A DNA stretch of 64,000 nt from an uncultured bacterium (GTDB lineage: Bacteria > Planctomycetota > Phycisphaerae > UBA1845), in assembly GCA_965371245.1 (NCBI GenBank), contig CBDUXT010000022.1, forward strand, positions 620-64,619. Reading direction: 5' to 3'. The notes under the pieces were generated by a model. It saw only the letters and a list, made by a program, of their open reading frames with translations. It did no database searches and was not told where the DNA came from. Shown here piece by piece: positions 22,705 through 45,699 of the stretch. Each line of letters begins with the position of its first letter. Position 1 is the stretch's first letter. The position numbers and the translations under genes were made by a program.

Positions 22705-22765
22705 GCCCCCAGTATAGGTTGTGGACGCACCGCGACACAGCCCGCCGGTCGTGAAGGATGGCTAC

Positions 22766-22942: not shown

Positions 22943-22949
22943 CCGATGG

Positions 22950-28105: not shown

Positions 28106-28200
28106 GGTCGATTCTCCGAAGCGACGGGTTCTGTTGATGAACCAAAACGTCGGCAAATCGTCTTGACGGCGGCAAACTGTTTATGCTACGCAGTGTACTC

Positions 28201-28863
28201 CTACGACGGATTCCCGCTTGCCTCGGCGCTTCCGAAGAGGCCATGCAGAAACTGGTCGGTAATCTGGTTGGCGACCGTCCCGACGGCCGGACCGCGCTGC
28301 GGGTGGTACCAGCGATACAGCCAGTTCAAGGTGCCGAACAGCGCCATGGTCGTCACGTGTCGGTCGATCGTTCCGTTGCTGCCGCGCGAGTCGAGCACAC
28401 GATCGATGATGCCGCGGGTGACACCGTAGTACGCATGCCGGATGTCGCAGGTCTCGACGTAGGCGCTGCCGGTGAGCGAGTCCAATTCGTGCGAGCAGAC
28501 CTTCAGCGCCTCCATGTTGGCCGCAAAATAGGCGAGGTGCTCCCGGATCATGATCCGTAGTTGTTCGCGGGGGTCATCCACGCCGCAGATCTTCTCACGA
28601 AGGTTGTTGAGCAACGATCCGAAGGCGCGAAACTGGATGAGAAAGAGGATCCGCTCCTTGCTGTCAAAGTAGTGGTAGAGCCCGGCGAGGCTGACGCCGG
28701 AGGCCTTGGCGACCTCCCGCATCGATGCCTTTTCGTAGCCCAGACGCGCGATCGCGCCGGTGGCGGCCGAGAGGATGTGATTCACCCGCTCGTCGTAGGT
28801 TCCGCGGCCATCCGTGTTGGTGGTCGCCCGCCCGGCCACGAACGGTCGTTCTGGTTTATCCAT
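28201..28863 (-). CDS. TetR/AcrR family transcriptional regulator
   Basis: HTH segment ILSAATGAIARLGYEKASMREVAKASGVSLAGLYHYFDSKE. Confidence 0.9.
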   Translation of the reverse strand: MDKPERPFVAGRATTNTDGRGTYDERVNHILSAATGAIARLGYEKASMREVAKASGVSLAGLYHYFDSKERILFLIQFRAFGSLLNNLREKICGVDDPREQLRIMIREHLAYFAANMEALKVCSHELDSLTGSAYVETCDIRHAYYGVTRGIIDRVLDSRGSNGTIDRHVTTMALFGTLNWLYRWYHPQRGPAVGTVANQITDQFLHGLFGSAEASGNPS

Positions 28864-28960: not shown

Positions 28961-28988
28961 TTGACACGGGCATGAATTCGTCGATAAT
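28961..28988 (+). promoter_or_regulatory. candidate sigma70-type promoter for the plus-strand catabolic operon
   Basis: TTGACA (28961-28966), a 16-nt spacer, then GATAAT (28983-28988), in the divergent tetR/oah intergenic region. Confidence 0.4.
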
Positions 28989-29073: not shown

Positions 29074-29108
29074 GTTATATGCATCTTTTGGTCCTAAGGA
29101 GACCCAAG

Positions 29109-30245
29109 ATGGCCATGTTCCCGCCCAGATCGGCCCAGTCGCTCGAGTTGCGCGAGGTCCGCTACCACAAGCAGGGCTGGGTCGCCCACATCGCGCTTGA
29201 CCGCCCCCACAACTACAACGCCTACAGCACGCCGGCGCTGACCGAGTTGGCCGCCGCCTTTCAGGACGCCTCCTGGGACGACCGCGTGGCGGTCGTCGTG
29301 TTCACCGGCGTGGGCGACCGCGCGTTTTGTACGGGCGGTGACGTCAAAGAGTACCAGGAGTCGTACACACAGAAGCCACGCGACTACTGGAAGTACATGT
29401 CCTGCTTCAAGGCTTACATCGAGTCCATTACGAACTGCTCCAAGCCGGTGATCGCGCGGCTCAACGGGATGGCCGTCGGCGGCGGGAACGAAAGCCAGCT
29501 TGCGTGTGACCTGTCCGTCATGGGCGAGCACGCGTTCATCGCGCAGGTCGGTACGAACGTCGGTTCGGTGGCGTGCGGCGGTTCGACGCAGTGGCTTCCG
29601 CTTCACGTCGGTGACCGCAAAGCACGCGGGATGTTGTTTCTCAATCAGCGGTACGGGGCGTTCACCTCACTGGCGATGGGGCTGGTCAACGTGGTCGCGC
29701 CGACGGTCAAGGGACCCGATGGCGCCTTCGTGACCAGGTTCACGGGTGGTCGAACGTACCTGGCCGACTGGAACACCGATCCGTGGGAGCAGCCGTTCGA
29801 GTCGCGCGCGACGCCGGAGCAGGTGAAGAAGGCTCAGAAGGGCATCGACGGATTCACGCTCGACCTCTCGGCCGTGGACGAAGCGGTCGCCGAACTTTGC
29901 GACCAGATCGTTCACAAGTTCTCGGAATGTACGCGGTACACGAAGGCTCAGGTCAATTTTTGGAAGGACGCGGCGTGGCATGCCACGGTGGGGCACGCGC
30001 GCGACTGGCTCTCTGTTCATTACACAAGTCTCGAGCCGCACGAGGGCATGTCGGCGTTCGTCGAGAAGCGCAAAGCCAACTATGTGGGGCTGCGTGAACG
30101 TGCGGCCGACCCCGCGGGATCGAGCGAGTTTCTGTGGGGTCCGTATGCCCACACCTGCATGGAGTGCGGCGCCAAGGGGATCCCTCGCGCCTTCGAGTTC
30201 TGCGGAAAGTGCGGGGCGGCGCTCAAGGCACCGGTGGCGACGTAG
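29109..30245 (+). CDS. crotonase-superfamily ring-cleaving hydrolase, Oah/BamA-like (6-oxocyclohex-1-ene-1-carbonyl-CoA hydrolase-like) with C-terminal zinc ribbon
   Basis: MenB/BadI/Oah-type core (AFCTGGDVKEY, LNGMAVGGGNESQLACDL). NYNAYST resembles the QYNSYTT region targeted by bamA primers. Long Oah-type insertion. C-terminal CMECG...CGKCG. AAGGAG RBS before ATG 29109. Confidence 0.65.
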   Translation: MAMFPPRSAQSLELREVRYHKQGWVAHIALDRPHNYNAYSTPALTELAAAFQDASWDDRVAVVVFTGVGDRAFCTGGDVKEYQESYTQKPRDYWKYMSCFKAYIESITNCSKPVIARLNGMAVGGGNESQLACDLSVMGEHAFIAQVGTNVGSVACGGSTQWLPLHVGDRKARGMLFLNQRYGAFTSLAMGLVNVVAPTVKGPDGAFVTRFTGGRTYLADWNTDPWEQPFESRATPEQVKKAQKGIDGFTLDLSAVDEAVAELCDQIVHKFSECTRYTKAQVNFWKDAAWHATVGHARDWLSVHYTSLEPHEGMSAFVEKRKANYVGLRERAADPAGSSEFLWGPYAHTCMECGAKGIPRAFEFCGKCGAALKAPVAT

Positions 30246-30267
30246 CGGGATCGACAGGGAGCGGCGC

Positions 30268-31008
30268 ATGCCCGCGGTTCGACGAGCACTGGTGACCGGC
30301 GGCGCCCGCGGCATCGGTCGTTGCATTGCGACGACGCTGGCACGCGACGGATGCGACGTATGTGTGCTGGACCGCGAGCCGGCGGATGACACCGATATGT
30401 TTGCTTCCGAGATCGAATCTCTCGGTCGAAAGTGCCTGACGCTCACCGGCGACGTGCGTGATGTGGCCGCCGTGCGCGACGCGATCGAATCGGTCGTGGG
30501 GCGGTGGGGCGGCATCGATGTCCTGGTCAACAACGCCGGCATCGTGCGGGATCAAGTCAGTTGGAAGATGAGCGACGACCAATGGCGCGACGTCATCGAC
30601 GTCAACTTGACCGGTGCTTTTTACGTCTGTCGGGCGGTCATTCCCCACATGCGCGAGGCCGGGTGCGGCACGATCATCAATCTTTCGAGCATCAATGGGA
30701 TGCGCGGGAAGTTCGGGCAGGCCAACTACGCCGCGTCCAAGGCGGGCTTGATCGGGCTGACCAAGTCGCTGGCAAGAGAAGTGGCACGGTTCGACATCAC
30801 CGTCAACGCCGTGGCGCCGGGTCTGATCGAGACGGACATTGTGCGGTCCATGTCGGCGGACGCGCTCAAGCAGTCGGCGGGCGAAATCCTTGTGAATCGC
30901 CTGGGGCGCGTGGAGGACGTGGCGGAAGCCGTGGCGTTTCTGGCGAGCGATCGCGCGCGCTTCATCACCGGCGAAGTGCTGCGCGTGGACGGCGGACAAT
31001 ACATCTAG
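30268..31008 (+). CDS. short-chain dehydrogenase/reductase (FabG-like)
   Basis: TGGARGIG, NNAG and the YAASKAG catalytic motif, 246 aa. Confidence 0.88.
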   Translation: MPAVRRALVTGGARGIGRCIATTLARDGCDVCVLDREPADDTDMFASEIESLGRKCLTLTGDVRDVAAVRDAIESVVGRWGGIDVLVNNAGIVRDQVSWKMSDDQWRDVIDVNLTGAFYVCRAVIPHMREAGCGTIINLSSINGMRGKFGQANYAASKAGLIGLTKSLAREVARFDITVNAVAPGLIETDIVRSMSADALKQSAGEILVNRLGRVEDVAEAVAFLASDRARFITGEVLRVDGGQYI

Positions 31009-31020
31009 GGACGAGTTGCC

Positions 31021-31791
31021 ATGAGCAAGTATGACTACTTCGACGTGGGCGTAGCGGACGGGGTGGCCACGGTCACGATGCGGCGCGAACCGCTCAATGT
31101 GCTGCACAACCCCATGATGGCGGAGTTCAACACGATCCTGGAGACGACGCTCTGTGGCTCGAACCTGGCGGCCATCGTGATCCGCGCGGCCGGCAAGGCG
31201 TTCAGCGCCGGCGTCGATGTCGGTGATCATGCGCCCGACAGCGTCGCGGACATGATTCGTCTGTTCCACGGCATTTTCAGGAAGCTGGCCGCCACCGACG
31301 CGGTCACCATCGCCGCGGTGCAGGGCGCGGCGCTGGGCGGCGGATGCGAGCTGGCTTGTTTCTGTGACATCGTACTGGCATCCGAACGCGCCAAATTCGG
31401 CCAGCCGGAGGTTCAGGTCGGCGTGTTCCCGCCGGTGGCGGCGTGCGTGCTTCCCGGACAGGTGGGTATCAAGAAGGCCATCGAGCTCAACGCGCTAGGG
31501 CACACGATCGGCGCGGCGGAGGCCCATCGCATCGGACTGGTCAACCAGGTATTCCCCACGGAATCGTTTGACGAAAGCGTAGAGACGTACCTGGACGACA
31601 TCCGCAAGCTCTCTCGACCCGTGGTGCGCCTGTCGAAGCGAGCGACCTGTTTGGTGTGGCGTGAGCGGGTGCTCGCCCATCTGGATCGGACCGAAGCGCT
31701 CTATCTTGATGAGCTCATGAAGCTTCGGGACGCGAGGGAAGGTATCGCGGCCTTTGTCGAAAAACGAAGCCCCAACTGGTGTCATGCATGA
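31021..31791 (+). CDS. enoyl-CoA hydratase, Dch/BamR-like (cyclohexa-1,5-diene-1-carbonyl-CoA hydratase-like)
   Basis: 256-aa crotonase. FGQPEVQVGVFPPVAACVLP and C-terminal EALYLDELMKLRDAREGIAAFVEKRSPNW resemble my recollection of Thauera Dch. Context includes Oah-like and Had-like genes. Confidence 0.75.
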   Translation: MSKYDYFDVGVADGVATVTMRREPLNVLHNPMMAEFNTILETTLCGSNLAAIVIRAAGKAFSAGVDVGDHAPDSVADMIRLFHGIFRKLAATDAVTIAAVQGAALGGGCELACFCDIVLASERAKFGQPEVQVGVFPPVAACVLPGQVGIKKAIELNALGHTIGAAEAHRIGLVNQVFPTESFDESVETYLDDIRKLSRPVVRLSKRATCLVWRERVLAHLDRTEALYLDELMKLRDAREGIAAFVEKRSPNWCHA

Positions 31792-31834
31792 TGCGCCGGA
31801 ACAAGATCACGCGCTCCACGGAGGATAAGCAACC

Positions 31835-32857
31835 ATGAAAGCGGCAGTGTTTCACGGCGACGACGTCGGTTTGAAGATCGAAGACATTCCGATTCCAACG
31901 ATCGGCGCACACGAAATCCTCGTGAAGGTGGCGGCCTGCGGCGTGTGTCACACCGACCTGCACTACATCGAACACGGCGTGCCGACCTTCAAGAAACCGC
32001 CGCTCGTGTTGGGGCACGAGGCGTCGGGCGTTGTCGAAGAGGTCGGCGGCGAGGTGGAGCATCTCGCCAAAGGGCAGCGTGTGCTGATCCCGGCGGTGCT
32101 GACCTGCGGCAAGTGCATGTTCTGCCGCATGGGCCGTGAAAACATCTGCGCCGACATGACCATGCTCGGCAACCACATCGACGGCGCGTACGCCGAGTTC
32201 GTGGCGGTTCCGGCGAAGGACGTGCTCGACCTGCCGGAATCGATCCCGCTCCATGAGGCGTCGATCATCGCGGACGCGCTCTCCACACCGTATCACGCGG
32301 TCAAGAACCGCGCACGGGTCCAACCCGGCGATACCGTCGTGATCTTCGGGTGCGGCGGCGTGGGCATGGGCGCGGTGCAGGTCGCGGTGGCGAGCGGCGC
32401 CTATGTCATCGCCGTTGATATGAATGAGCGCAAGCTGCAATGGGCGTCCGACTTCGGGTCCGTCAAGACCATCAACGCATCGAAGTTCGAGCGGGTCAGC
32501 AAGGAGGTCAAGAAGCTCACGGGCGGCGGCGCGGACATCGCGATGGAGGTGATCGGCAACCCACGAACGATCGAGGAGGCGTTCGAGTGCGTACGCGTCG
32601 GCGGGCGACTGTGTGTCGTCGGTTATACGCACGAAAAGATATCGCTGGTGGCGGGCAAGATCATGTTCAAGGAGATCGAAGTCGTCGGCTCTTTGGGGTG
32701 TCGACCGCTCGATTACCGGCCGCTGATTCGAATGGTGGAGACCGGCGTGATCGACGTGAAGCGTCAGGTCACGCACCGGTTCAAGCTGGAGGAATTGGAA
32801 CGGGCGTTCGCGGTGATGAAAGAGGGCGTGTCGTTGCGGTCCATCGTGACGCCGTAA
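31835..32857 (+). CDS. Zn-dependent alcohol dehydrogenase, Had-like candidate (6-hydroxycyclohex-1-ene-1-carbonyl-CoA dehydrogenase)
   Basis: GVCHTDLH, GHEASGVVEEVG, structural-Zn Cys cluster CGKCMFCRMGRENIC, Rossmann VIFGCGGVG. Confidence 0.75.
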   Translation: MKAAVFHGDDVGLKIEDIPIPTIGAHEILVKVAACGVCHTDLHYIEHGVPTFKKPPLVLGHEASGVVEEVGGEVEHLAKGQRVLIPAVLTCGKCMFCRMGRENICADMTMLGNHIDGAYAEFVAVPAKDVLDLPESIPLHEASIIADALSTPYHAVKNRARVQPGDTVVIFGCGGVGMGAVQVAVASGAYVIAVDMNERKLQWASDFGSVKTINASKFERVSKEVKKLTGGGADIAMEVIGNPRTIEEAFECVRVGGRLCVVGYTHEKISLVAGKIMFKEIEVVGSLGCRPLDYRPLIRMVETGVIDVKRQVTHRFKLEELERAFAVMKEGVSLRSIVTP

Positions 32858-34114
32858 ATGCGAGCTGAGATGAGCACGATCGCGGTCAAACGAGTTGAGA
32901 TCAAGGCGCAACAGCGGCTGGGCGCGCTGATGCGCGAGCATTTTCTCGACCTCGACGCGGCCGCCCATGATCCGCAGCGCAACGTGGCGTGGTGTACCTC
33001 CGTCGGACCGTGCGAGATTCTGACGGCCATGGGGTTCGAGGTGTACTTCCCGGAGAATCACGGGGCGCTACTCGGTGCGCGGCGCGTCAGCCACGAACTC
33101 ATCCCGCGGGCGGTCGGCATCGGCTACGGCGCGGAGTCGTGTTCCTACATGACCAGCGACATCGGTTCGGCGCTGGCGGGGGTGAGCCCGCTGACGGAGG
33201 CGTTCGGCATCGCCGGCCCGCCGACGCCTGATCTGTTGGTCTACAGCACCAATCAATGCCGCGAGGTGCAGGACTGGTGGAACTTCCACGGCCGGCGCAG
33301 CGGCGCCGCCGTGATGGGCGTGTGTCCGCCCACGCACCTGGGCGAAGTGACGGGTGAACACGTCGCCTTCGTTCGCGGCCTGTTGGAACGGCTGATCGAA
33401 CAGATCGAGCGTCGATTGGGAGCCACGTTGGATCGTGATCGCCTAAAGGAAGTGGTGACGCTGTCCAGCCGGGCGAGCCACCTGTGGCGGCAGGTGCTCG
33501 ATACGGCGCGAGCCCATCCGTCGGCGATGACCTTCTTCGACGGTGTGATTCATATGGCGCCCGTGATCCTCATGCGCGGGTCGAAAAAAGCGATTGATTA
33601 CTACGAAGAGCTGCTCGCCGAGTTGAATCAGCGGGTTGCCGACGGCGTGGGCGCCGTGCCCGACGAACGCTTTCGCATTTATTGGGAGGGGATGCCGATC
33701 TGGCCGAAGGTGCGTGAGCTGGCGGAGAAGTTTTTTGACCTGCGCACTGTCGTCGCCGCGAGCACCTACTGTAACTCATGGGCGTTCGGCGAGTTCGACG
33801 GCGGCGATCCGGTTGAGTGGATGGCGCGGACCAGCATCGAGATCTTCATCAACCGCGATGAGGTTACAAAGCAGGGTTTTCTCGAGGAGATGTTCGAGCG
33901 ATTCGAGATCGACGGCGCGATCTTCCACAACGCACGAACGTGCCCGAACAACACGAACTCGCGTTTTGGCATGGCTCAACGCATTCGCGAAGAAAGGGGT
34001 ATGCCGGTGCTGGTGATCGACGGCGACCTCAGTGACGTGCGGTTCTTTTCGACGGCGCAGACGATGACCAACATCGAGGCGTTTGTCGAACAGCTCGAGG
34101 AGCACACGCGATGA
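32858..34114 (+). CDS. benzoyl-CoA reductase/2-hydroxyacyl-CoA dehydratase superfamily protein, orphan single subunit (DCCP-like candidate)
   Basis: 418 aa. Paralogous by eye to the BcrB-like protein at 43440 (FRIYWEGMPIWP vs FRIVVEGPPPYP; HNARTCPNN vs HSIKSCRLF; DLSDVRFFS vs DLEDPRYY). Seven Cys. No partner subunit adjacent. ATGA overlap with the activase gene. Confidence 0.8.
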   Translation: MRAEMSTIAVKRVEIKAQQRLGALMREHFLDLDAAAHDPQRNVAWCTSVGPCEILTAMGFEVYFPENHGALLGARRVSHELIPRAVGIGYGAESCSYMTSDIGSALAGVSPLTEAFGIAGPPTPDLLVYSTNQCREVQDWWNFHGRRSGAAVMGVCPPTHLGEVTGEHVAFVRGLLERLIEQIERRLGATLDRDRLKEVVTLSSRASHLWRQVLDTARAHPSAMTFFDGVIHMAPVILMRGSKKAIDYYEELLAELNQRVADGVGAVPDERFRIYWEGMPIWPKVRELAEKFFDLRTVVAASTYCNSWAFGEFDGGDPVEWMARTSIEIFINRDEVTKQGFLEEMFERFEIDGAIFHNARTCPNNTNSRFGMAQRIREERGMPVLVIDGDLSDVRFFSTAQTMTNIEAFVEQLEEHTR

Positions 34115-34929
34115 GCGGCGCTCTTTTTGTCGGCATCGATGTCGGATCATCGGCGACCAAGTGCGTCGTGCTCGACGAAAGCGCGACCCTGGTCGGACAC
34201 CACGTGGTCAACTCGGGTTTCGACTACGTCGAGGCGGCCCGGGTCGCACTTCACCACGCCCTGGCTGCGGCCGAGGTCGAGAAACCCGACATCAAACGCT
34301 GCGTGGCCACCGGATACGGACGCGAGCGTGTCGCGCTGGCGGATCGGCGCGTCACTGAAATCACCTGTCATGCGCGCGGCGCCCGCGAGTGGTACCCCGC
34401 GGTACGCAGCATCATCGACGTCGGCGGACAGGACACGAAGGTCATTCGCCTGGGCGAAAACGGGCGCATGGCGGACTACCGCATGAACGCCAAGTGTGCG
34501 GCGGGTACGGGTACGTTTCTCGAATCGATCGCGCACAAGCTCGGGCTTTCGCTGGGGCGCCTGGACGAACTGGCGATGACCTCAACAGAGCGGGTTGTGG
34601 TCAACAGCTACTGCACGGTCTTCGCCGCAACGGAGGTGATCGAGCGGATCAAGGAGGGACAGCCGCCGCGAGATATCGCGATGGGGCTGTTTCGTTCGAT
34701 CGCGACGCGCGTGACGGAGATGCTGGCCGCTCGTGACGGCGCCGTCGCGGTGACCGGCGGCGTGGCGGCCCACTGTCGGGCCTTGGTGCGAGCCCTGGAA
34801 GAAGTGCTTGAGACCGAGGTGCTGTTACCGCCGATGCCGCAGCACGCCGGAGCCTACGGAGCGGCCTTGCTCGCCGCCGAAACGGATGATGTACATAGGA
34901 GCTCGAAGAGCCATGCTGCGTACCGGTGA
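34111..34929 (+). CDS. BcrAD/BadFG/HgdC-type activase ATPase (ASKHA fold, bridging 4Fe-4S)
   Basis: GIDVGSSATKCVVLD, IDVGGQDTKVI, KCAAGTGTFLE and SYCTVFAATEV (the two cluster Cys), 272 aa. Confidence 0.9.
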   Translation: MSGALFVGIDVGSSATKCVVLDESATLVGHHVVNSGFDYVEAARVALHHALAAAEVEKPDIKRCVATGYGRERVALADRRVTEITCHARGAREWYPAVRSIIDVGGQDTKVIRLGENGRMADYRMNAKCAAGTGTFLESIAHKLGLSLGRLDELAMTSTERVVVNSYCTVFAATEVIERIKEGQPPRDIAMGLFRSIATRVTEMLAARDGAVAVTGGVAAHCRALVRALEEVLETEVLLPPMPQHAGAYGAALLAAETDDVHRSSKSHAAYR

Positions 34930-37900
34930 ACTCGGCGTCCATCCGCCCGGTGCATTGGGCGTGGCGTTTTTCATGCACACGCGCGCGGAGTGCTTCGTGG
35001 GCCGCGGCGGTGACGGCATCACGCTGCCGCTCAAGGACGCGGGCGCGCTGAATCTGCTGGACGACGGACGCCAACGATCGATTGCCCTCGGCGGAAAGAT
35101 CCTGGCGAATCTTCTCGAGGCCGACGCGCTGGACCGCATGCCCGAACTTCTCCTGGTCTGCTGTAACCCGAACCAATTAGATCTGGTCACGCAGGAAGTG
35201 ACGCGTTTCCTTGAGAGCCTGGCGGGCCGAGGGCGTTTGCGATCGATCGATGACATCCGGCGCCACGTGCCGATTCTGCTGCTGATGCCCAACGGCGTGC
35301 TGATGGAGCAGACCATCGCCACCTATGAAGATCAAGTCAGCGAAGCCGTCCTGATGGAGCGGCTGCCCGGCGTGGACGAGTCGATGGTGGAGGCACTGAT
35401 GGCGCGAGTGGTCCGCGGCATTTCGCTCCAGGCGGGCGGACGTCGTGGGATGGGACGAGACACCGTGTATCTGCTCGAAAAGAAAGGCTCGCTGGTGTTC
35501 GCCGGCGGCGGGGACTTCGAGCGATCGCGCATCGAGGCGATTCTGGGCGTCCGCCAGTACCCGTTCCACCACGCCAAGGGCGTGCCCGGCACGCGGATCG
35601 AGTTCGACAAGGCGATGATCTCGATGGTCCTCAACGTCGGAGGACTGATTCACACCGTCAAGTCCAGCGGTGAGCTGATCGATCTGCGCATGGGCGACCT
35701 GTGCGGCGACGCGAGCAAGGCGGAATTCGTCGAACGCGTCGGACGCGCGGTGTTCGACGTGGGCCAGGTGGTCGATGCCTATCCACGCGAGGCAAGCTAT
35801 GAAGCCATCTGGGCGAAGCACCGTGCCACCATCATGTCGTTCGCTGGACACATGACCAGCTCGCTCAAGACCCTTCGCGACGCACTGGCGAATGGCTTGA
35901 ACAGTGTCACGCTGTTTTCCAACGAGGAGTGGATTCTGACGCCGCTCTGTCGCTACGCAGCGAAGGCCGGTCTGTCTGAAGCGGAAGCGCTGTTCAAATC
36001 GCTCAAGCACGAGGTTCAGGCGTCCATGGCGCGAGCCATTCGCCATCGAGATCACACCAACCACGGTGGACAACCAGGAGCTACCGACATGCCACTGACG
36101 GCTCAACGCAACATCACGATCGAACTCTTCGACGCCGGCCCCGATCACGTTGCGGTCGTCGGCACCATGCTCGACAGCGAGCATCTGATCAAACTCGATA
36201 TCAAGATCTACCTGCCCGACGAACAGATCGTTAGCAGTCGGCTGAGCATGATTCGCGTGCCGTTTCCCGTGTGCCGCGAGGTCGAGAGCGCGGCCGAGCG
36301 CCTGGTGGGCCTGCGCATCGAACGCGGGGTGCTCGCCGAGATTATTCGTCGCGTTGGCGGTCGCGTGGGGTGCTCGCACATCAAAGAACTCGCCACGAAC
36401 ATCATCTATTTCGTGGCGTCCGATCTGGTGCGCCGCCGGGCCGGCCTGGACCCGCTGAGCGCGGACTTCGGACAGAAACCACCGGAAGAGCGCTTCGCGC
36501 TGACCAAGGAGCTGTTGCGCGATACGTGCCTTGCTTATTGCCAGACGACGTCGCTTGGCCTCGACGAGCAGATCGGCATCAAGCGGGTCGGCGAGGTCCA
36601 TACGAGCAACATTCCGCTGGGCGAGTATGAGTCGTCGGTGGGCGTTGTTCTGCGGAACCGCGCCGAGCGCTTCGGCGACAAGCCCTTCCTTCGTACGCGA
36701 CAAGGCGACGACGAGTCGATGACGACCTGGTCGCGGTTTTTACGCGAGGTGCGCACGATCGCGCGAAACCTGATCGATCTGGGCGTGCGCCCGGGCGACC
36801 GCGTCGGGATGATTTCGGAGAACCGACCGGAGATGTTCGAGGCCGACCTTGCGATCATGGCCATCGGCGCCGTGACCGTGCCGGTGTTCGCCGGATACCC
36901 GCGACATCAAATCGCCTACGTGCTGGGGCACGCCAAGCCGAAACTACTGATCGTCTCGGGCATGCATCAGCTCGATAAGATCGAGGCGGAGCGCCACCCG
37001 TGGATCAAGAAGTGCGTTGCGATGGACTTTGGCGCCGATTGTGCGGCGTGGGGTGCGATCCCCTTCAGCGACCTGCTCGAACCTTCCAAGACGACCGACG
37101 GCGAACTCGACGCAAGAATCGATGCGGTCCAGCCGGACGATCTGTGTCTTGTCATGTATACGTCCGGCACGACCGGCCCGCCGAAGGGGGTTCGTCTGTG
37201 TCATCGCAACATCATCACGCAGCAAAAAGCCATCGAACTCATCTGGGACGTTAGTGACCAGGACGTTTTGCTGAGCTACCTGCCGTGGCACCACAGCTTC
37301 GGCGGAATCTTCGAGCGGTTTCTGGCGCTTTATCACGGGTGCGAACTCTGCCTTGACGATTCTCGCGGGCGCGACGTCGATCGGCTGATCGCCAATTGGA
37401 AGGCCTTCGATCCGACGCTCTTTTTCAGCGTGCCGCGCGTGCATGACCTGATCGTGACCGCCTGCCGCGCGACACAGGAGGTGGACCGTGTCATCTTTGG
37501 TGGGCGGCTCCGCTTCGTGTTCACCGCCGGCGCCTCGCTGCCCGCGCCGGTGGCGGCCACCTACCGACGGCACAACATACCGGTGCTTGAGGGCTGGGGG
37601 CTCACCGAGACCGCCCCGAGCGTGACCCTGACCACGCTCGATGGCTCGTGGCGTAGCGGCTACGTCGGGTTTCCGATCCCCGGCGTCTCGGTTCGCATCG
37701 ACGACGATCAGGAGATTCTGGTCAAGGGTCCCAACGTGATGAGCGGCTACCTCGACGACGAGGAGGCCACCGCCCACGTGCTCGGGTCGAACGGCTGGTT
37801 CAAAACCGGCGACCTCGGCGAGTTCACCAAGAACGGTCTTCGCGTGTTCGGCCGAAAGGACGGCGCCTTCAAACTGACCACCGGCGAGAAGGTCCACCCG

Positions 37901-38320
37901 CAACGGATCGAGACCGTGCTGGTCAACGAGTCGCGTTACATCGACCAGGCCCTGGCATTGGGCAGCGGGGAGGACTTCGTAGGCGCCCTCGTGTATCCGG
38001 CGATGGGTGAACTGACCCGATGGGCCGACGAGCACGGCGCAACGAGTGATGATCTTCTGACGGAGCCGAGTATTCGCGCATTCTTGAGCCGAGAAATCGA
38101 GCGACTCAACGCATTGGTCGAAGTGAAGTATCAGCGCGTTCGGCGCGTGATTCTGACCGATCGCGAGCCGACGCTGGCCAACGGTGAACTGACGCCGTCG
38201 GGCAAGATCGTACGCAAGGCGGTCATCGCCAATCACAAGGATGCCCTGGACGACATGTTTGCGCTGATGCCCGGCGAGCGCGTGATCCGGGTCGGGCACG
38301 TGCAGTTACAAAGGGCGTAA
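34913..38320 (+). CDS. three-domain fusion: PanE/ApbA-like oxidoreductase-like region, DUF2889-like module and AMP-forming acyl-CoA synthetase (FadD/COG1022-like)
   Basis: About 34913-36060: ketopantoate-reductase-like (LLVCCNPNQLDLV, LLLMPNGV, EFDKAMISMVLNVGGL), but the GxGxxG is degenerate. About 36090-36480: RNITIELFD...VGGRVGCSHIKELATN, DUF2889-like from memory. About 36640-38320: AMP-binding (MYTSGTTGPPKGV, GWFKTGDLG, GRKDGAFKLTTGEKV). ATG 34913 lies 11 nt after AGGAG. Confidence 0.8.
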   Translation: MLRTGELGVHPPGALGVAFFMHTRAECFVGRGGDGITLPLKDAGALNLLDDGRQRSIALGGKILANLLEADALDRMPELLLVCCNPNQLDLVTQEVTRFLESLAGRGRLRSIDDIRRHVPILLLMPNGVLMEQTIATYEDQVSEAVLMERLPGVDESMVEALMARVVRGISLQAGGRRGMGRDTVYLLEKKGSLVFAGGGDFERSRIEAILGVRQYPFHHAKGVPGTRIEFDKAMISMVLNVGGLIHTVKSSGELIDLRMGDLCGDASKAEFVERVGRAVFDVGQVVDAYPREASYEAIWAKHRATIMSFAGHMTSSLKTLRDALANGLNSVTLFSNEEWILTPLCRYAAKAGLSEAEALFKSLKHEVQASMARAIRHRDHTNHGGQPGATDMPLTAQRNITIELFDAGPDHVAVVGTMLDSEHLIKLDIKIYLPDEQIVSSRLSMIRVPFPVCREVESAAERLVGLRIERGVLAEIIRRVGGRVGCSHIKELATNIIYFVASDLVRRRAGLDPLSADFGQKPPEERFALTKELLRDTCLAYCQTTSLGLDEQIGIKRVGEVHTSNIPLGEYESSVGVVLRNRAERFGDKPFLRTRQGDDESMTTWSRFLREVRTIARNLIDLGVRPGDRVGMISENRPEMFEADLAIMAIGAVTVPVFAGYPRHQIAYVLGHAKPKLLIVSGMHQLDKIEAERHPWIKKCVAMDFGADCAAWGAIPFSDLLEPSKTTDGELDARIDAVQPDDLCLVMYTSGTTGPPKGVRLCHRNIITQQKAIELIWDVSDQDVLLSYLPWHHSFGGIFERFLALYHGCELCLDDSRGRDVDRLIANWKAFDPTLFFSVPRVHDLIVTACRATQEVDRVIFGGRLRFVFTAGASLPAPVAATYRRHNIPVLEGWGLTETAPSVTLTTLDGSWRSGYVGFPIPGVSVRIDDDQEILVKGPNVMSGYLDDEEATAHVLGSNGWFKTGDLGEFTKNGLRVFGRKDGAFKLTTGEKVHPQRIETVLVNESRYIDQALALGSGEDFVGALVYPAMGELTRWADEHGATSDDLLTEPSIRAFLSREIERLNALVEVKYQRVRRVILTDREPTLANGELTPSGKIVRKAVIANHKDALDDMFALMPGERVIRVGHVQLQRA

Positions 38321-39571
38321 ATGGTGAAGACAAACGAATATCCAGCGATCGTCATCGTCGATGGCGCGCGAACGCCCATCGGCGTCAAGTGCGGCACGCT
38401 GAAGCGCTTTGCGCCGGAGGATCTGGCCACGCTTGCTTGCGAGGAGGCCATCCGCCGTAGCGGCATCGCCCGCGAACGAATCGACACGGCCGTCGGCGCC
38501 AATGTGTATCAATACACGGCCCCCGGCGCGCAGGACATCTATTTCCCGCGCAATGTCGGATTGCGCTGCCGGCTGAACGTCGAAACGCCGGCACTGATGG
38601 TGCAGCGCATCTGCGGCTCGGGCTTGCAAACGATTGTCAGCGCCATGCAGCAGCTCGCCCTGCCCGACGTCGTGGACGACGCGAAAACGGCGCTCTGCTT
38701 CGGCAGCGAGGTGATGTCGCGTACGCCGCAGGTGATTCGCGCTCCGCGCAATGATGCCAACTTCTGGGAATTCGAAGAAGGTGGAACCGTCGAGGACATG
38801 CTGCTGGCCGGACTGAACCACGATCTGGCCCATACCACCATGATGCTCACCGCCGACGAGTACGGTCACGCAACCGGCGTGACACGACAGGCATGCGATG
38901 CGTTCGCATCGCAATCGCATGAGCGCGCCCGAGCCGCCTATCGCAACAGCCATCTCAACGGCGGCGACGCGCTGCATGGCATGTTTGCGATCGACGCAAC
39001 GGACCTGAGCGGAGAACCCGTACACCTCGCCCGGGACGAATGCACCCGAAACACCTCGGCTGAAGCGCTGGCGAAGCTGCGCGGCATCACGCCGCACAAA
39101 CTCGTGTCTGCCGGTAACGCCAGCGAGCTGAGCGACGGGGCGGCCGCGGTGGTGCTGGCCGAGCGCGAGGTCGCTAGGCAAAACGGATGGTCCACGCAAT
39201 TCGAAATCGTCGGCTACTGTGTCCGCGGAGTCGATCCGCGCGTCATGGGCTCCGGCCCGGTGCCCTCCATCAACCAGGCACTGCGTCGCGCCGGGCTTGA
39301 GCAACCCGATATCGGTCTGTGGGAGATCAACGAAGCATTCGCCGCGCAGTATCTCGGCGTGGAAACGCAAATGGGGCTTCCGCGCGAGAACGTCAACGTC
39401 AACGGCGGAGCGATTGCCCTGGGGCATCCCCTGGCCGCCACCGGCGTGCGGCTGATCGTCGATCTCATGTATGAAATGAAGCGTCGCGGCGTCGAGCACG
39501 GCTGCGCCTCGGCTTGTATCGGCGGTGGGCAGGGCATCGCCGTCATCCTGCGAAATACGGAACCAACATGA
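38321..39571 (+). CDS. acetyl-CoA C-acyltransferase (thiolase)
   Basis: Active-site region RICGSGLQ, NVNGGAIALGHPLAATG and CIGGGQGIAVIL. Confidence 0.93.
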   Translation: MVKTNEYPAIVIVDGARTPIGVKCGTLKRFAPEDLATLACEEAIRRSGIARERIDTAVGANVYQYTAPGAQDIYFPRNVGLRCRLNVETPALMVQRICGSGLQTIVSAMQQLALPDVVDDAKTALCFGSEVMSRTPQVIRAPRNDANFWEFEEGGTVEDMLLAGLNHDLAHTTMMLTADEYGHATGVTRQACDAFASQSHERARAAYRNSHLNGGDALHGMFAIDATDLSGEPVHLARDECTRNTSAEALAKLRGITPHKLVSAGNASELSDGAAAVVLAEREVARQNGWSTQFEIVGYCVRGVDPRVMGSGPVPSINQALRRAGLEQPDIGLWEINEAFAAQYLGVETQMGLPRENVNVNGGAIALGHPLAATGVRLIVDLMYEMKRRGVEHGCASACIGGGQGIAVILRNTEPT

Positions 39572-39599
39572 ACCTTTGCCCTCTCAACGGAGCGGTCCC

Positions 39600-42059
39600 A
39601 TGAAGCGCGCATTCTCATTCGGCGACAAGGCGATTGAACCGGCCGTACGCCGCGTCAACGAGATTCGGTGTGTGGCCATCATCGGCGCCGGCACGATGGG
39701 GCAAGGCATCGTCATCGACCTGCTCCGGAAAACGGATTACGCCATTACACTCCTGGATGTGAAGCAGGAGGCACTTGACGCCGCTTGCACTCGGGTCGAA
39801 TCAATCTTCAAGAAAGATGTGGCCGCGCTTCGGATGCGCGAGGAGGATGCCGCCGCTTGTGTCGCGCGGATGACCTATACGCGCAGCTACGATTCGCTTG
39901 GCAAGGCCGACATTGTCTGGGAGGTCGCCACCGAACGAAGTGATGTCAAGGCTTCCATCTTCGCCAAGATCGAGGATGCGATCGATCCCGCGGGTCTTGC
40001 CGCGATCTTCTCGAACACGTCATCGCACACGACGGCCGAACTCGCCGAACTGTTTCGTTCGGAGGCGTTTCGCGAAAGATTCCTGACCGTTCACGGATAC
40101 TATCCGTTCGAAGCCAACCGCCTCATCGACGTCATGAAGGGCAAGTACGCCTCTAACGCCACGTTCAAGATCGCCACGGTCTTCGCCGACCAGATCCTCG
40201 AAAAGACGGTCATCGCGCTGCCGGTCGATCACCACGGCTACATCACCGATCCGATCTTTCAGGCGATGGGCGCCATCATTTCGTGGGACGTCAAGACCTC
40301 GAAGGACATCGTCGAGCGCGGCGGACTGTGGGACCTCTTTACGGCCAATCCGTTCGTCGTGCTCGACCAAACCGGGCACATGCCCTACACCGAGTCATCG
40401 CGCCACCTCGGCACCGCGTTGCCCGAAACCGATCGACTGCGCAGCCTCTACCAGCGCGACGGCGCGTTCTATCCGGCATGGATCGCGCGGCTGGAGCGCG
40501 ACGGACGTACCGGGGTTCAGTCCAGCGAGCGTCGCGGCTTCTTCGCCTGGAGTTCGGACGATCGACCCAAGCCCACGGCCGTACTCGATCCACAAACGAA
40601 CGAATACGTACCGATCTGCGAGATATCACGAAAAGATCACTGGTCCTACTACGAGGCCTCGGAGCAGGATCGCCTCGCCGGTCGGATCAAGAGTGCCGAG
40701 TCCCTCGTGCATGTCGCCTGTGCGGGTGACGCGGGTGGGCGCGCGTTCCGGCGCTATGTCCTTCCGATTTGCCTCTATGCCCTGGATATGATTCAGGATC
40801 GCATCGCCACACCCGGGCAGATCAACATGGCGACCCGGGCGGGGCTTCGCTTCAAGGTGGGGCTGATCGAACTCATCGACACGCTCATCGCCCATCTGAC
40901 GATCGACGGCGTGATCGAACTGATCCGCAGGGCGCGCGATGAGAACGCCGACGATCCTCTCATGGTAGAGATGCTCGACGTGGACGGCGCCGCGGGGCCA
41001 CGCCAAGGCCGGCCGTGTTTGCTGTGGGACATGAAGCGTCGCAACCTCCCGCGACTGCTCGGCTACGGCAAACACTATCGAACGCCGGTCGCGGAACTCG
41101 ATCTTGAAACCGGCACGTACCGAGGTTGCTATCTCGATCTCAAAATGACCGCGCCCTCGTCGAAAGACCGTGTCGCGAGCATCGTGTTCAACAGCTCGCT
41201 GCGTGGGAACGTATTCAACAAGTCCGTCATCGATCAACTCGCCCACGCGTTCAGTCGCGTGCTTGCGCTGCATCAAAAAGGTGCGTGCGGGGCCGTGCTC
41301 TTCAGCGCCGCCGGTTGCGGGATGCGCATGCTCGGCGCCGATGCACGAGAGTTCAATCGCGGCTGGTTCGAGCGCGAGCAGGGGTATGCGCCGCTGGACG
41401 AATCCGAGGCGGCGGCCTCGAGTCGCAACGCAGTCTCACTCTTCCGTTTGATACAACGGAGTCCCGTCGCGTCCATCGGCGTCTTCGGCGAAAAGTGGGG
41501 CGGGGGGGCGGAATTCAGCTATTTTCTGGATCTTCGGTACGACGTACGCGCCCACGGTTTCACGTTCGACTCGCTCGAACGAGAGTCCCGATGGGGACGG
41601 AAGAACACCTACAACCAACCGGAACTCGACTTTGCGATTCTTCCCGGTTTCGGCGCGGCCGGTGAACTCAAACGCCTCGGCATGGGCGACTCGATCATCT
41701 TTGAACTGTTCGATCAAGGACTGACGGCCGATCGCGCCCACCAGGTCGGCCTGAGCAACGGCGTGTTCGATGATGAATGGGAGGGGATCCGGCGGGGCTT
41801 CGAACGTGCCCGGCAGATGGCCAAGGACGCGCCCTACTCGCGGGCTCTGTTCAAGCAGGAACTCGCCCGCGGCGCGGATGACGAGGCGCTGGCCGGTGAC
41901 ACGGCCGCGACGTTCGACCCCAAGCGTAACCCGTTCATACGAACCGGGCTGCTGGCCTTACTCGATCGCGAACATCGAGCGCCGACGATGAACTACGCCT
42001 GCAACGGTGTTCAGCTCCCCGGATGGCAGTACCCCACGGAAAATGGAATGGCCGATTGA
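39600..42059 (+). CDS. bifunctional 3-hydroxyacyl-CoA dehydrogenase (N-terminal) / crotonase-fold (C-terminal) protein
   Basis: VAIIGAGTMGQGIV Rossmann motif and the 3HCDH N and C domains. The C-terminal ~300 aa has a crotonase-like segment (VLFSAAGCGMRMLGADAREF). 819 aa. Confidence 0.85.
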   Translation: MKRAFSFGDKAIEPAVRRVNEIRCVAIIGAGTMGQGIVIDLLRKTDYAITLLDVKQEALDAACTRVESIFKKDVAALRMREEDAAACVARMTYTRSYDSLGKADIVWEVATERSDVKASIFAKIEDAIDPAGLAAIFSNTSSHTTAELAELFRSEAFRERFLTVHGYYPFEANRLIDVMKGKYASNATFKIATVFADQILEKTVIALPVDHHGYITDPIFQAMGAIISWDVKTSKDIVERGGLWDLFTANPFVVLDQTGHMPYTESSRHLGTALPETDRLRSLYQRDGAFYPAWIARLERDGRTGVQSSERRGFFAWSSDDRPKPTAVLDPQTNEYVPICEISRKDHWSYYEASEQDRLAGRIKSAESLVHVACAGDAGGRAFRRYVLPICLYALDMIQDRIATPGQINMATRAGLRFKVGLIELIDTLIAHLTIDGVIELIRRARDENADDPLMVEMLDVDGAAGPRQGRPCLLWDMKRRNLPRLLGYGKHYRTPVAELDLETGTYRGCYLDLKMTAPSSKDRVASIVFNSSLRGNVFNKSVIDQLAHAFSRVLALHQKGACGAVLFSAAGCGMRMLGADAREFNRGWFEREQGYAPLDESEAAASSRNAVSLFRLIQRSPVASIGVFGEKWGGGAEFSYFLDLRYDVRAHGFTFDSLERESRWGRKNTYNQPELDFAILPGFGAAGELKRLGMGDSIIFELFDQGLTADRAHQVGLSNGVFDDEWEGIRRGFERARQMAKDAPYSRALFKQELARGADDEALAGDTAATFDPKRNPFIRTGLLALLDREHRAPTMNYACNGVQLPGWQYPTENGMAD

Positions 42060-42124
42060 TGGGGACCGAAGGCGCCGAAGCGATCGGCGCCGCGAGGCCA
42101 AGAGCCTGGCCCAAATTGTGTGGC

Positions 42125-42147
42125 ACCGGCATCTTGCCGGTCTTTTC
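42125..42147 (+). terminator. candidate intrinsic terminator
   Basis: ACCGGCA-TCT-TGCCGGT (7-bp stem) followed by CTTTTC, 66 nt after the stop of the preceding gene. A second GC-rich hairpin GGCGCCGA-AGCGA-TCGGCGCC lies just upstream of it, starting ~10 nt after that gene's stop. Confidence 0.4.
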
Positions 42148-42210
42148 ACGGACTCGAAGCCCGTGGCGCACTTGTTATTGGGATAGGTTCCAGGACCAAC
42201 GGAGGTAAGC

Positions 42211-43365: not shown

Positions 43366-43439
43366 GTGCGTGTAGCGGCGCCGCGACAGGAACCAAGAAA
43401 CCCGCTAGGACACCGGAACTCCGGTCGGAGCGAAACCTG

Positions 43440-44723: not shown

Positions 44724-44755
44724 ACAACGCGACAAGACCGAAAGGGTTGGAATCC

Positions 44756-45592: not shown

Positions 45593-45699
45593 CGACGCAA
45601 CACGCCGGCGAATCAACTTGCCGGATACGGCGGGAATCAAAAAAATGGCGCGGCGCGACTGACGGCCACGCGGTAAGAAGAACCATCAAGGAGTGAAAC

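Follow-up and report, generated by a model that had tools for sequence, protein, structure and literature searches.

A conserved clade of 2-hydroxyacyl-CoA dehydratase/benzoyl-CoA reductase superfamily proteins with a dedicated activase and no beta-subunit gene nearby: a candidate aryl-lactyl-CoA dehydratase module in a planctomycete benzoyl-CoA cluster

The beta subunit of 2-hydroxyacyl-CoA dehydratases (HAD) and class I benzoyl-CoA reductases (BCR) is thought to be the entry point of the ATP-energised electron. The characterised HADs and BCRs are all alpha-beta heteromers (PMC7317905, PMC11971306), and the known class I BCRs use two different ATPases together with an [8Fe-9S] beta subunit (PMC11971306). 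In the catalytic subunit BzdO, the ligand cysteines are C95, C128 and C380, and the aqua-[4Fe-4S] site contains a Glu65/His131 acid-base pair (PMC11971306). In DCCP/DCCP-R of Carboxydothermus hydrogenoformans (YjiM/YjiL in E. coli), one HGD-D protein is associated with one dedicated ATPase gene, and a homodimer docks a homodimer (PMC7317905, PMC9351452). The DCCP motif, CX19CX18-19CX29CX166-170CX32-34CX32C, comprises seven cysteines, six of which are ligands to the double-cubane [8Fe-9S] cluster (PMC7317905).

The window analysed here, a stretch of 64 kb from an uncultured planctomycete, contains a gene pair which an earlier note had proposed to be a DCCP/DCCP-R-like system. Its catalytic component is called ALPHA below. 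The features of the region are as follows.

24330-28156, minus strand: 4-hydroxybenzoyl-CoA-reductase (4-HBCR)-like Mo enzyme (TIGR03194, 896 bits, cutoff 995), made of a gamma-alpha fusion (24330-27227) and an FAD subunit (27224-28156)
28201-28863, minus strand: TetR-family regulator, divergent from the plus-strand operon
28961-28988, plus strand: sigma-70-like promoter match, TTGACA-16-GATAAT (11/12), upstream of a 13-gene plus-strand array
29079-30245, plus strand: upstream ORF (TIGR03200, 220 bits, below cutoff)
30268-31008, plus strand: short-chain dehydrogenase (SDR)
31021-31791, plus strand: Dch-like enoyl-CoA hydratase (TIGR03189, 164 bits)
31835-32857, plus strand: Had-like Zn-dependent alcohol dehydrogenase (TIGR03201, 248 bits), its stop abutting the ALPHA start
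32858-34114, plus strand: ALPHA, alpha/catalytic-type HGD-D protein, 418 aa (PF06050, 198 bits)
34111-34929, plus strand: HgdC/HadI/DCCP-R-type ATPase ('archerase' activator), 272 aa (PF01869 BcrAD_BadFG, 194 bits; TIGR00241, 238 bits)
34913-36068, plus strand: N-terminal domain of a fusion protein, ketopantoate-reductase (KPR)/ApbA-family fold (AF2 pLDDT 84, Foldseek)
36182-36403, plus strand: central DUF2889 domain of the fusion, with no known function (PF11136, 48 bits)
36653-38263, plus strand: AMP-forming acyl-CoA ligase domain of the fusion, FadD11/PRK12582-like (PF00501, 265 bits; PF23562)
38321-39571, plus strand: thiolase (acetyl-CoA C-acyltransferase), its start abutting the fusion stop
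39600-42059, plus strand: multidomain protein with 3-hydroxyacyl-CoA dehydrogenase (beta-oxidation)
42211-46557, plus strand: four-subunit Bcr-type class I BCR, with BcrC-like (42211-43365) and BcrB-like (43362-44723) subunits and two ATPases (44747-45592 and 45700-46557)

The gene context described in the earlier note is borne out: Oah-, Dch- and Had-like ring-processing genes are found upstream of ALPHA and a CoA ligase fusion downstream, and the complete BCR placed 7 kb beyond the pair starts 7.3 kb downstream of it. From the Had-like gene to the thiolase, the gaps between genes are 0, -4, -17 and 0 nt. The promoter match is the sole one in 19 kb, and is not significant alone, shuffled sequences having 3.4 on average; shuffling also gives at least as many terminator-like sites as the real sequence.

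The 418-aa ALPHA with its seven cysteines (46, 52, 95, 134, 156, 305 and 362), coupled by an ATGA overlap to the 272-aa ATPase, is confirmed by the translated ORFs and their PF06050 and PF01869 matches. As ALPHA homologues are 413-414 aa long, the ATG at 32870 may be the true start, giving 414 aa. Both expected cluster cysteines are indeed present in the activase: C129 lies within NAKCAAGTG and C168 within NSYCTVFA, and the two align with those of HadI and MbdQ. Being encoded by a single gene, the activase is presumably a homodimer. It adjoins the ALPHA homologue in 54 of the 72 assessable loci and is present in the same array in 11 more (65/72 in total), and a DCCP-like two-component architecture, with a catalytic protein and a one-gene ATPase, is therefore plausible. 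The organisation initially put forward, a single protein with its own ATPase, is thus retained, but not the DCCP identity.

A DCCP/DCCP-R-like double-cubane [8Fe-9S] reductase could account for this two-gene architecture (PMC7317905), for a significant fold match of ALPHA to DCCP (Foldseek E 1.5e-14, TM 0.74) and for the alignment of C305 with a Cys of genuine BzdN, but we consider it very improbable. A regular-expression search for the seven-Cys motif in ALPHA was negative, its cysteines being spaced by 5, 42, 38, 21, 148 and 56 residues, and the DCCP model NF040772 only gives 57.1 bits, against a cutoff of 350, over residues 170-413 of the C-terminal half. HadB (3o3m_A) is the top PDB match of ALPHA, with a phmmer E of 1.9e-44 compared to 3.5e-4 for DCCP. 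It also ranks first in Foldseek (E 4e-23, TM 0.85-0.88), and MbdO/BzdO (E about 1e-22 to 1e-20, TM 0.82) likewise outrank DCCP. In an alignment of 79 family members, the only invariant cysteines are C95, C134 and C362, whereas the double-cubane reading would require six ligands to align. The extra, near-invariant C46 and C305, located on active-site linkers, are each replaceable: seven members, forming one subgroup, have Ala in place of C305, and locus L070, which keeps the full gene context, has Leu in place of C46. With such replacements, an 'open' double-cubane held by five cysteines (C46, C95, C134, C305 and C362) is unlikely as well. Finally, DCCP is closer to the beta type, since the window BcrC reaches 125 bits on the DCCP model, whereas ALPHA falls on the opposite, alpha side of the superfamily.

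On sequence grounds, ALPHA is indeed of the alpha (substrate-binding) type, like HadB, BcrB and BzdO. C95, C134 and C362 align with the ligands of HadB and with C95/C128/C380 of BzdO (PMC11971306), and the Glu of the PENH motif (residues 65-68), invariant across the 79 members, aligns with BzdO Glu65. These three cysteines are predicted to hold a single [4Fe-4S] cluster, one iron of which is left open. Identity is about equal to HadB (28%) and to the window BcrB (27.6%). The HadB model NF052455 gives 196 bits, under its equivalog cutoff of 750, and the BCR catalytic models TIGR02260 and TIGR03191 give 141 of 487 and 74 of 449 bits, their cutoffs being unmet; for contrast, an Asgard BzdO (locus L063) reaches 697 bits in the BCR equivalog test. 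The HadB model outscores the BcrB and BzdO models in every clade member tested, and several motifs are common to ALPHA and HadB and absent from BCR catalytic subunits. ALPHA shares with BcrB, BzdO and MbdO the alpha-type fold, the three Cys ligands, the Glu and the genomic neighbourhood, but it lacks their 3-residue insertion and the aromatic residue or His after the second Cys ligand. The missing BzdO His131, replaced by Val in ALPHA, was downgraded as evidence for a dehydratase: MbdO and BcrB also lack this His, having Phe or Tyr there, and the position is therefore not diagnostic. In a bootstrapped neighbour-joining tree, the ALPHA family forms a separate clade in 200/200 replicates, grouping with the Bcr/Mbd type in 107/200 and with HadB in 33/200, HAD alpha subunits being represented by a single reference.

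HMMs built from alpha-type and beta-type subunits were searched over the entire 64-kb window. They detected three HGD-D ORFs, namely ALPHA and the BcrC-like and BcrB-like subunits, so that, in agreement with the earlier note, the window holds no second catalytic subunit for ALPHA besides the BCR's own pair. Related loci were read over about 10 kb on each side. No unassigned beta-type ORF was found in 81 loci, each HGD-D ORF being either a member of the ALPHA family or part of a BCR alpha/beta pair. Relatives down to 39% identity possess the activase and no beta gene; at 34% and 30% identity, a beta gene immediately precedes that of the relative, which indicates that the method detects partners where they are present. 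ALPHA belongs to a distinct clade, and a beta-type partner gene lies near none of the members examined.

ALPHA could alternatively form a conventional heterodimer, either by borrowing BcrC/BzdN from the BCR next to it or by recruiting a beta-type protein whose gene is unlinked, as would fit the heteromeric state of all characterised relatives. A BCR beta gene is present within about 8 kb in most loci, and the scan covered about 10 kb per side rather than whole genomes. We nevertheless regard such borrowing as quite unlikely, as the BCR context of the clade is variable, with two Bcr lineages, a Bzd-type BCR or no BCR within 10 kb. The closest relatives (87% and 85% identity) are located beside very different BcrC lineages (274 versus 717 bits to the window BcrC), other members are beside genuine BzdN, and there is no BCR at L053, L056, L062, L064, L078, L083 and L085-L087. 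Furthermore, canonical relatives have their beta gene immediately adjacent, whereas here the constantly linked partner is the activase. Asgard loci do not lack a BCR as a group: in L063, genuine BzdN and BzdO are encoded where its 10-kb flank ends, and other Asgard loci are cut there.

The clade is found in Planctomycetota, Asgard archaea, Acidobacteriota, Elusimicrobia and Gammaproteobacteria, and more than 120 clusters have 71-92% identity to ALPHA. The 79 aligned members, which range from Planctomycetota to Asgard archaea, share 74 invariant residues. Relatives keep the synteny and the translational coupling, and ALPHA has a dN/dS of 0.06-0.10, the same as the adjacent Had-like gene. The clade is under strong purifying selection. 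A decaying or non-functional BcrB paralogue, an alternative raised in the earlier note, would be in line with the low identity to the window BcrB and with the lack of a partner gene, but it is hardly credible in view of this conservation. The clade genes are presently annotated as 'BcrC/BadD/HgdB' or as generic dehydratases. Literature searches brought up no account of a HAD-type enzyme without a beta subunit; an uncharacterised 'singular' FldB-like gene is mentioned in PMC13416013. The clade is widespread and had not been described previously.

ALPHA homologues are usually accompanied by the activase, a KPR-family D-2-hydroxyacid dehydrogenase and an acyl-CoA ligase; a 4-HBCR-like Mo enzyme is frequent as well. 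The KPR-family reductase is encoded by a separate neighbour, fused to the ligase as in the window, or fused to ALPHA. Separate ApbA genes lie beside the pair in loci of Asgard archaea, Acidobacteriota, Elusimicrobia and Gammaproteobacteria, among others; in P0152, P0153 and P0160, a single polypeptide carries both ApbA and the alpha domain; and ligase genes adjoin the pair in related loci. In the window, the likeliest start of the fusion, ATG 34913, is preceded by AGGAG and gives a 1135-aa protein overlapping the activase gene by 17 nt. Its N-terminus was identified only through AF2 and Foldseek (5x20, 3wfi, 3wfj and KPRs, E 6e-12 to 1e-8, TMt up to 0.77); by sequence, there was no Pfam match (E up to 1), no PDB phmmer match, no significant BLASTP match to Asgard ApbA and an E of 0.08 in hhalign against the ApbA neighbours. 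Its predicted structure is closest to D-mandelate dehydrogenase, a D-2-hydroxyacid dehydrogenase, and D-mandelate dehydrogenases belong to the KPR family according to Wada et al. (2008), as cited in PMC6303947. NAD(P)H binding by this domain is uncertain, because its glycine motif is PxGxxG and not GxGxxG. NCBIfam typing assigned no specific substrate to the ligases, which have a medium/long-chain look.

Taken together, we give about even chances to a beta-less system of the HAD/class I BCR superfamily, in which ALPHA would be the catalytic component and the ATPase its ATP-dependent reductive activator, the two probably forming an aryl-lactyl-CoA dehydratase module. The most likely chemistry, and the most likely substrate as deduced from gene context alone, would be the following. 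The KPR-like domain of the fusion would reduce a 2-oxoacid to an (R)-2-hydroxyacid, and its ligase domain would form the 2-hydroxyacyl-CoA. The ferredoxin-reduced activase, spending ATP, would then deliver a single electron to the [4Fe-4S] cluster of ALPHA, itself probably a homodimer. The thioester carbonyl would bind the open iron and give a ketyl radical from which the alpha-hydroxyl leaves; beta-deprotonation and return of the electron would yield the enoyl-CoA. The side chain could be shortened by the thiolase, hydroxyacyl-CoA dehydrogenase and hydratases of the next genes, although these beta-oxidation genes could serve the 3-hydroxypimelyl-CoA branch only. The likeliest substrates are phenyllactyl- and 4-hydroxyphenyllactyl-CoA. 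They would be converted to cinnamoyl- or coumaroyl-CoA and, further on, to benzoyl- or 4-hydroxybenzoyl-CoA, on which the neighbouring Mo enzyme, the BCR and the Dch/Had/Oah enzymes would act. A link to aromatics is suggested by the 4-HBCR-like Mo enzymes adjacent in the window and at L062, L064, L078 and L083, and by the D-mandelate dehydrogenases of the KPR family. An IorA/ADP-ACS neighbourhood, a clue to arylpyruvate, occurs in one Asgard locus only, and no aminotransferase was found near the pair. The role of the window's Mo enzyme is uncertain, as its FAD subunit, which has a single Cys and hence no [4Fe-4S] insertion, lacks the [4Fe-4S] loop carried by the canonical 4-HBCR FAD subunit.

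This dehydratase module would resemble HadBC/HadI of Clostridioides difficile and its relatives HgdAB/HgdC, FldBC/FldI and LcdAB/LcdC. In addition to HadB being the top sequence and fold match, the common features are the three-Cys open-iron [4Fe-4S] site with the PEN(Q/H) Glu (predicted in ALPHA), a one-gene activator with a helix-cluster-helix Cys pair, and an upstream D-2-hydroxyacid dehydrogenase and CoA activation, here deduced from family membership. Conversely, ALPHA has no HadC-type beta gene nearby and stays below the HadB equivalog cutoff. The HAD systems use a CoA-transferase and a 2HADH-family reductase where an AMP-forming ligase and the KPR/ApbA family are found here, and they belong to amino-acid fermentation operons of Clostridia rather than to an anaerobic benzoyl-CoA degradation cluster of Planctomycetota, Asgard archaea and others.

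The same two proteins might instead carry out a stoichiometric, ATP-coupled low-potential reduction at an alpha-type site, and not a redox-neutral dehydration. Candidate reactions are the reductive dehydroxylation of 2-hydroxyacyl- or hydroxyaryl-CoA and the dearomatisation of a substituted benzoyl-CoA, at a [4Fe-4S]-OH2 as in BzdO, with C46 and C305 perhaps acting as hydrogen donors. The slight leaning of the tree to Bcr/Mbd-type catalytic subunits, the equivalence of the PENH Glu and BzdO Glu65, and the two extra Cys on active-site linkers are consistent with this. So are the top PDB match of the activase, the BCR ATPase MbdQ (198 bits, with HadI at 189 and HgdC at 187), the roughly equimolar synthesis suggested by the ATGA coupling, and the location of the pair in BCR clusters, right beside 4-HBCR-like Mo enzymes. 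We nonetheless hold such a reductase to be unlikely. Class I BCRs have two ATPases and an [8Fe-9S] beta subunit, whereas here there is one ATPase gene and no BcrC/BzdN-type partner; the HadB model is the better one for all members tested; C46 and C305 are dispensable in some members; and the KPR fusions and ligase linkage suit a 2-hydroxyacid route. A more specific version, to which we give little credence, is a self-sufficient homomeric enzyme in which two open-iron [4Fe-4S] sites replace the alpha-beta pair and the activase is used stoichiometrically for ATP-driven reduction. An example would be 2-hydroxyacyl- or hydroxyaryl-CoA reductive dehydroxylation with C46/C305 as hydrogen donors, alongside a Mo enzyme without the ferredoxin-entry [4Fe-4S] loop. 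If true, bacteria and Asgard archaea alike would possess a third kind of ATP-coupled ketyl/Birch-type system. The third ATP-coupled reduction system of the earlier note is, however, not what the context and gene fusions favour: they point to the dehydratase logic, from 2-oxoacid to 2-hydroxyacyl-CoA to enoyl-CoA.

A conserved beta-less clade would provide a minimal two-gene system for activator docking, electron delivery and electron recycling, and the recurrent KPR-DUF2889-ligase and KPR-alpha fusions are directly testable constructs. As for annotation, metagenomic surveys covering Planctomycetota and Asgard archaea could mistake the clade genes for BCR subunits and miscount them. If the substrate proposed here is right, aromatic 2-oxo and 2-hydroxy acids derived from Phe and Tyr would reach the benzoyl-CoA pathway via radical dehydration, a route which, to our knowledge, is so far known for aromatic 2-hydroxyacids from fermenting Clostridia only.

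The tight plus-strand array spanning 29079-46557, with one strong sigma-70-like match upstream of it (28961-28988), contains a gene of the HGD-D family, here called ALPHA, and the gene of its activase. The features needed for the argument are the following:

24330-28156, minus strand, 4-hydroxybenzoyl-CoA reductase (4-HBCR)-like Mo enzyme, gamma and alpha fused (965 aa), divergently transcribed
32858-34114, plus strand, ALPHA, 418 aa, PF06050 HGD-D (198 bits)
34111-34929, plus strand, activase, 272 aa, PF01869 (194 bits) and TIGR00241 acyl-CoA dehydratase activase (238 bits)
34913-38320, plus strand, fusion of a KPR-like domain, DUF2889 and an acyl-CoA ligase in one 1135-aa polypeptide

The earlier note had described a single HGD-D protein with 7 Cys, coupled through ATGA to an activase with both cluster Cys and having no second catalytic subunit in the window, and this description is borne out. 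The two ORFs share the ATGA overlap, the Cys count agrees, the cluster Cys of the activase are C129 and C168, and its motifs are common to HadI and MbdQ. Alpha-type and beta-type HMMs recognise only three HGD-D ORFs in the 64-kb window, ALPHA and the BcrC-like/BcrB-like pair of 42211-44723. The gaps between the Had-like gene, ALPHA, activase, fusion and thiolase are 0, -4, -17 and 0 nt. As homologues are 413-414 aa long, ALPHA may alternatively start at ATG 32870; for the fusion, ATG 34913 is the most likely start, and the resulting length of 1135 aa matches that in locus L001. The Oah-like crotonase (29079-30245) has a short Cys-rich C-terminal tail (CMECGAKG...CGKCGA) that resembles zinc ribbons weakly, its matches to PF12773 and PF24463 being under cutoff.

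By sequence, the nearest solved structure to ALPHA is, over the full length, HadB (E 1.9e-44), the substrate-binding alpha subunit of (R)-2-hydroxyisocaproyl-CoA dehydratase, followed by the catalytic BCR subunits MbdO (2e-25) and BzdO (1e-16); the match to DCCP is weak (3.5e-4) and limited to the C-terminal half. NCBIfam scores decrease from HadB (196 bits) to BcrB (141), BzdO (74) and the double-cubane model (57), all four far under the curated cutoffs. The AlphaFold model of ALPHA (pLDDT 81), used as Foldseek query, gives the same order as the sequence, HadB (TM 0.85-0.88) and MbdO/BzdO (~0.82) outranking DCCP (0.74), and reaches 0.64-0.71 with the beta-type BzdN, HadC and MbdN. Since the window's BcrC-like gene and genuine BzdN score 125 and ~200 bits on the double-cubane model, DCCP is, by these scores, allied with the beta branch; ALPHA is placed in the alpha branch.

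The cysteines likewise speak against the double-cubane protein proposed in the earlier note. The DCCP motif is CX19CX18-19CX29CX166-170CX32-34CX32C, six of its Cys binding the [8Fe-9S] cluster (PMC7317905). The spacings in ALPHA are different (5, 42, 38, 21, 148, 56), and only C95, C134 and C362 are invariant in 79 family members from several phyla; these align with the aqua-[4Fe-4S] ligands of BzdO (C95, C128, C380), a single-cluster arrangement, and with the matching HadB Cys. C52 and C156 are variable, and C46 and C305 (at about 32993 and 33770 in the window), although near-invariant (78/79 and 72/79), are replaceable: C46 is Leu in an Acidobacteriota member which keeps the full gene context, and C305 is Ala throughout one Planctomycetota paralogue group. 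ALPHA thus cannot supply six protein ligands, and the DCCP identity is rejected. In HadB and BzdO, Ser stands in place of C46 and either Pro or Thr in place of C305; in genuine BzdN, a Cys is aligned with C305. In the AlphaFold model both residues are located on strand-helix linkers of the pocket, and they may act as hydrogen donor, transient ligand or in shaping the pocket.

Within the alpha branch, ALPHA and HadB have in common (A/G)W(C/S)(T/S)SV, EG(M/I)P(I/C)WP and a Val three residues past the second ligand, and neither has an insertion following the STY motif; this comparison favours HadB. In a bootstrapped NJ tree, the clade is monophyletic (200/200) and clearly of the alpha type, the beta types splitting off (200/200); support for its sister group is divided between HadB (33/200) and Bcr/Mbd-type catalytic subunits (107/200), with a single HAD alpha reference in the tree. 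As to mechanism, we give dehydration by ALPHA and its activase about an even chance, and the main rival, in which the same pair is an ATP-driven reductase, is unlikely.

In 81 loci, read over 10 kb on each side, each HGD-D ORF is either a clade member or one half of an authentic BCR's alpha/beta pair, and around several clade loci no BCR is encoded within 10 kb. Among further relatives, drawn from the 50%-cluster library, L083, L085, L086 and L087 (down to 39% identity) carry alpha and activase genes and no beta gene, whereas L089 and L090 (34% and 30% identity) have a beta-type gene directly upstream of the alpha gene. The partner search is thus able to detect beta genes where they are present and, because they are found in the 34% and 30% relatives and in none down to 39%, the lack of a beta gene characterises this clade over the ~10 kb read on each side. 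A beta gene may alternatively be unlinked, elsewhere in the genome, but this would differ from every characterised system, in which, to our knowledge, the genes of the two subunits lie side by side. The activase directly adjoins ALPHA in 54 of the 72 assessable loci, and in 11 Asgard loci it closes the array that contains ALPHA.

The accompanying BCRs vary. Genuine Bzd-type BCRs are found in Asgard L063 and Elusimicrobia L071, and two divergent Bcr lineages of the downstream four-subunit enzyme occur in Planctomycetota: in otherwise syntenic clusters, BcrC scores either ~250-280 bits (L002, L014, L015, L020, L025, L026, L030 etc.) or 520-720 bits (L003, L007, L018 etc.) against the window's BcrC, with 274 bits in the closest locus (L002, 87% alpha identity) and 717 in L003 (85%). 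Two lineages in otherwise syntenic clusters suggest that the BCR cassette was replaced inside a conserved operon.

The conserved companions point, by analogy, to a 2-hydroxyacid route. In clostridial 2-hydroxyacyl-CoA dehydratase systems, a 2-oxoacid reductase is followed by CoA activation and by an alpha-type ketyl enzyme with its activator (PMC7317905). At least 14 loci keep the Asgard array: AMP-ligase, thiolase, ALPHA, MaoC hydratase, HdrD-like, AFOR-family, ferredoxin, ApbA/PanE-family reductase, activase. The order is Dch, ALPHA, activase, ligase, ApbA in L070 (Acidobacteriota), and ApbA ... ALPHA, activase in L085 and L087, with a ligase then in L085; ApbA genes also occur in Elusimicrobia L071 and Gammaproteobacteria L064/L078. 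The most telling evidence comes from P0152, P0153 and P0160, in which an ApbA domain precedes an alpha-type HGD-D domain in a single polypeptide, a Rosetta-stone fusion that, as read from sequence, ties the reductase step to the ALPHA-type enzyme. The window appears to have the same companion set, since the first ~385 residues of its fusion, for which sequence searches of Pfam and PDB gave no match, are predicted to fold KPR-like: their AlphaFold model (pLDDT 84) retrieves ketopantoate reductases as well as D-mandelate dehydrogenase (E 6e-12 to 1e-8; Foldseek TMt up to 0.77). The passage of PMC6303947 that cites Wada et al. (2008) includes D-2-hydroxyacid (D-mandelate) dehydrogenases in the KPR family. 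The domain has PPGALG where GxGxxG is expected and belongs almost only to Planctomycetota fusions, the exceptions being two stand-alone relatives (31-32% identity), one of which, P0149 (L082), adjoins an ACT-domain gene. In L063 (12196-16578), as in 13 or more further Asgard loci, the HdrD-like CCG/Fer4 protein, 634-aa AFOR-family protein and 176-aa polyferredoxin, encoded between ALPHA and ApbA/activase, resemble BamBCD-like modules; in L063 the Bzd-type BCR lies 8 kb from this module.

Given the co-occurrence of thiolase, hydroxyacyl-CoA dehydrogenase, hydratases, BCR and Dch/Had/Oah, the simplest reading of the gene set would be a pathway in which an arylpyruvate is converted through aryllactate and aryllactyl-CoA to cinnamoyl- or coumaroyl-CoA, which beta-oxidation would shorten to benzoyl- or 4-hydroxybenzoyl-CoA for the benzoyl-CoA pathway. 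Several points keep this reading tentative: the beta-oxidation genes are needed for 3-hydroxypimelyl-CoA too, the ligases have no substrate-specific NCBIfam match, no aminotransferase is found near the pair, IorA adjoins it in one locus only, and the FAD subunits of two of the Mo enzymes, described below, depart from canonical 4-HBCR. The Mo enzyme best matches the 4-hydroxybenzoyl-CoA reductase alpha subunit (896 bits, under the cutoff of 995). Related Mo enzymes directly adjoin ALPHA and activase in L062, L064 and L078, and the L083 operon consists only of KPR-ALPHA, activase, three Mo-enzyme subunits, XdhC and MocA. In Thauera aromatica 4-HBCR, a Cys-rich insertion of the beta subunit carries an extra [4Fe-4S] cluster; the window's FAD subunit, with a single Cys, and the L083 enzyme (11019-14757) are without this insertion, whereas four clustered Cys (C170/186/194/208) are present in the L078 FAD ORF. 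The genes immediately downstream of the Mo enzyme (21763-24305, minus strand), probably in the same transcription unit, encode an XdhC-family protein for Mo-cofactor insertion and a radical-SAM protein of 451 aa.

More than 120 protein clusters are 71-92% identical to ALPHA, every named source being Planctomycetota/Phycisphaerae. A one-genome-per-species scan gave 376 relatives, of which 80 loci were kept; their Planctomycetota members are completely syntenic with the window, and relatives of ~50% identity come from Asgard archaea (Prometheo-, Hermod-, Thor-, Hod-, Odinarchaeota), Acidobacteriota, Elusimicrobia and Gammaproteobacteria. On contig JASMMN010000024.1 (63 kb), L031 (1-20056) and L033 (43129-63184) have matching gene maps and scores in inverted orientation at both ends, which reflects either misassembly or a large duplication in inverted orientation. 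A decaying paralogue under relaxed selection, an outcome considered in the earlier note, is ruled out by a dN/dS of 0.06-0.10 for ALPHA against four relatives (dS near saturation) and by 74 residues that all family members share; among them is the PENH motif, with its Glu at the position of BzdO Glu65. The activase gives 0.05-0.20, and the dN/dS of the pair equals that of the neighbouring Had-like gene.

The likeness to DCCP/DCCP-R is thus at the gene level, one catalytic gene and one ATPase gene, ALPHA lacking the cluster motif and scoring under the DCCP model, whereas the likeness to HadBC/HadI most probably lies in the active site and the pathway. ALPHA nevertheless differs from the HAD family by the lack of a beta subunit gene nearby and a score under the HadB equivalog, and from BCR by scores under the equivalog models and the lack of a four-subunit organisation; judged on these criteria, it is a member of neither DCCP nor HAD as defined. 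Our literature search found no description of such a beta-less system. The clade, whose genes are now annotated as BCR or generic HGD subunits, would represent a predicted minimal ketyl-enzyme system of two genes, widespread among uncultured anaerobes, Asgard archaea being one group of them.
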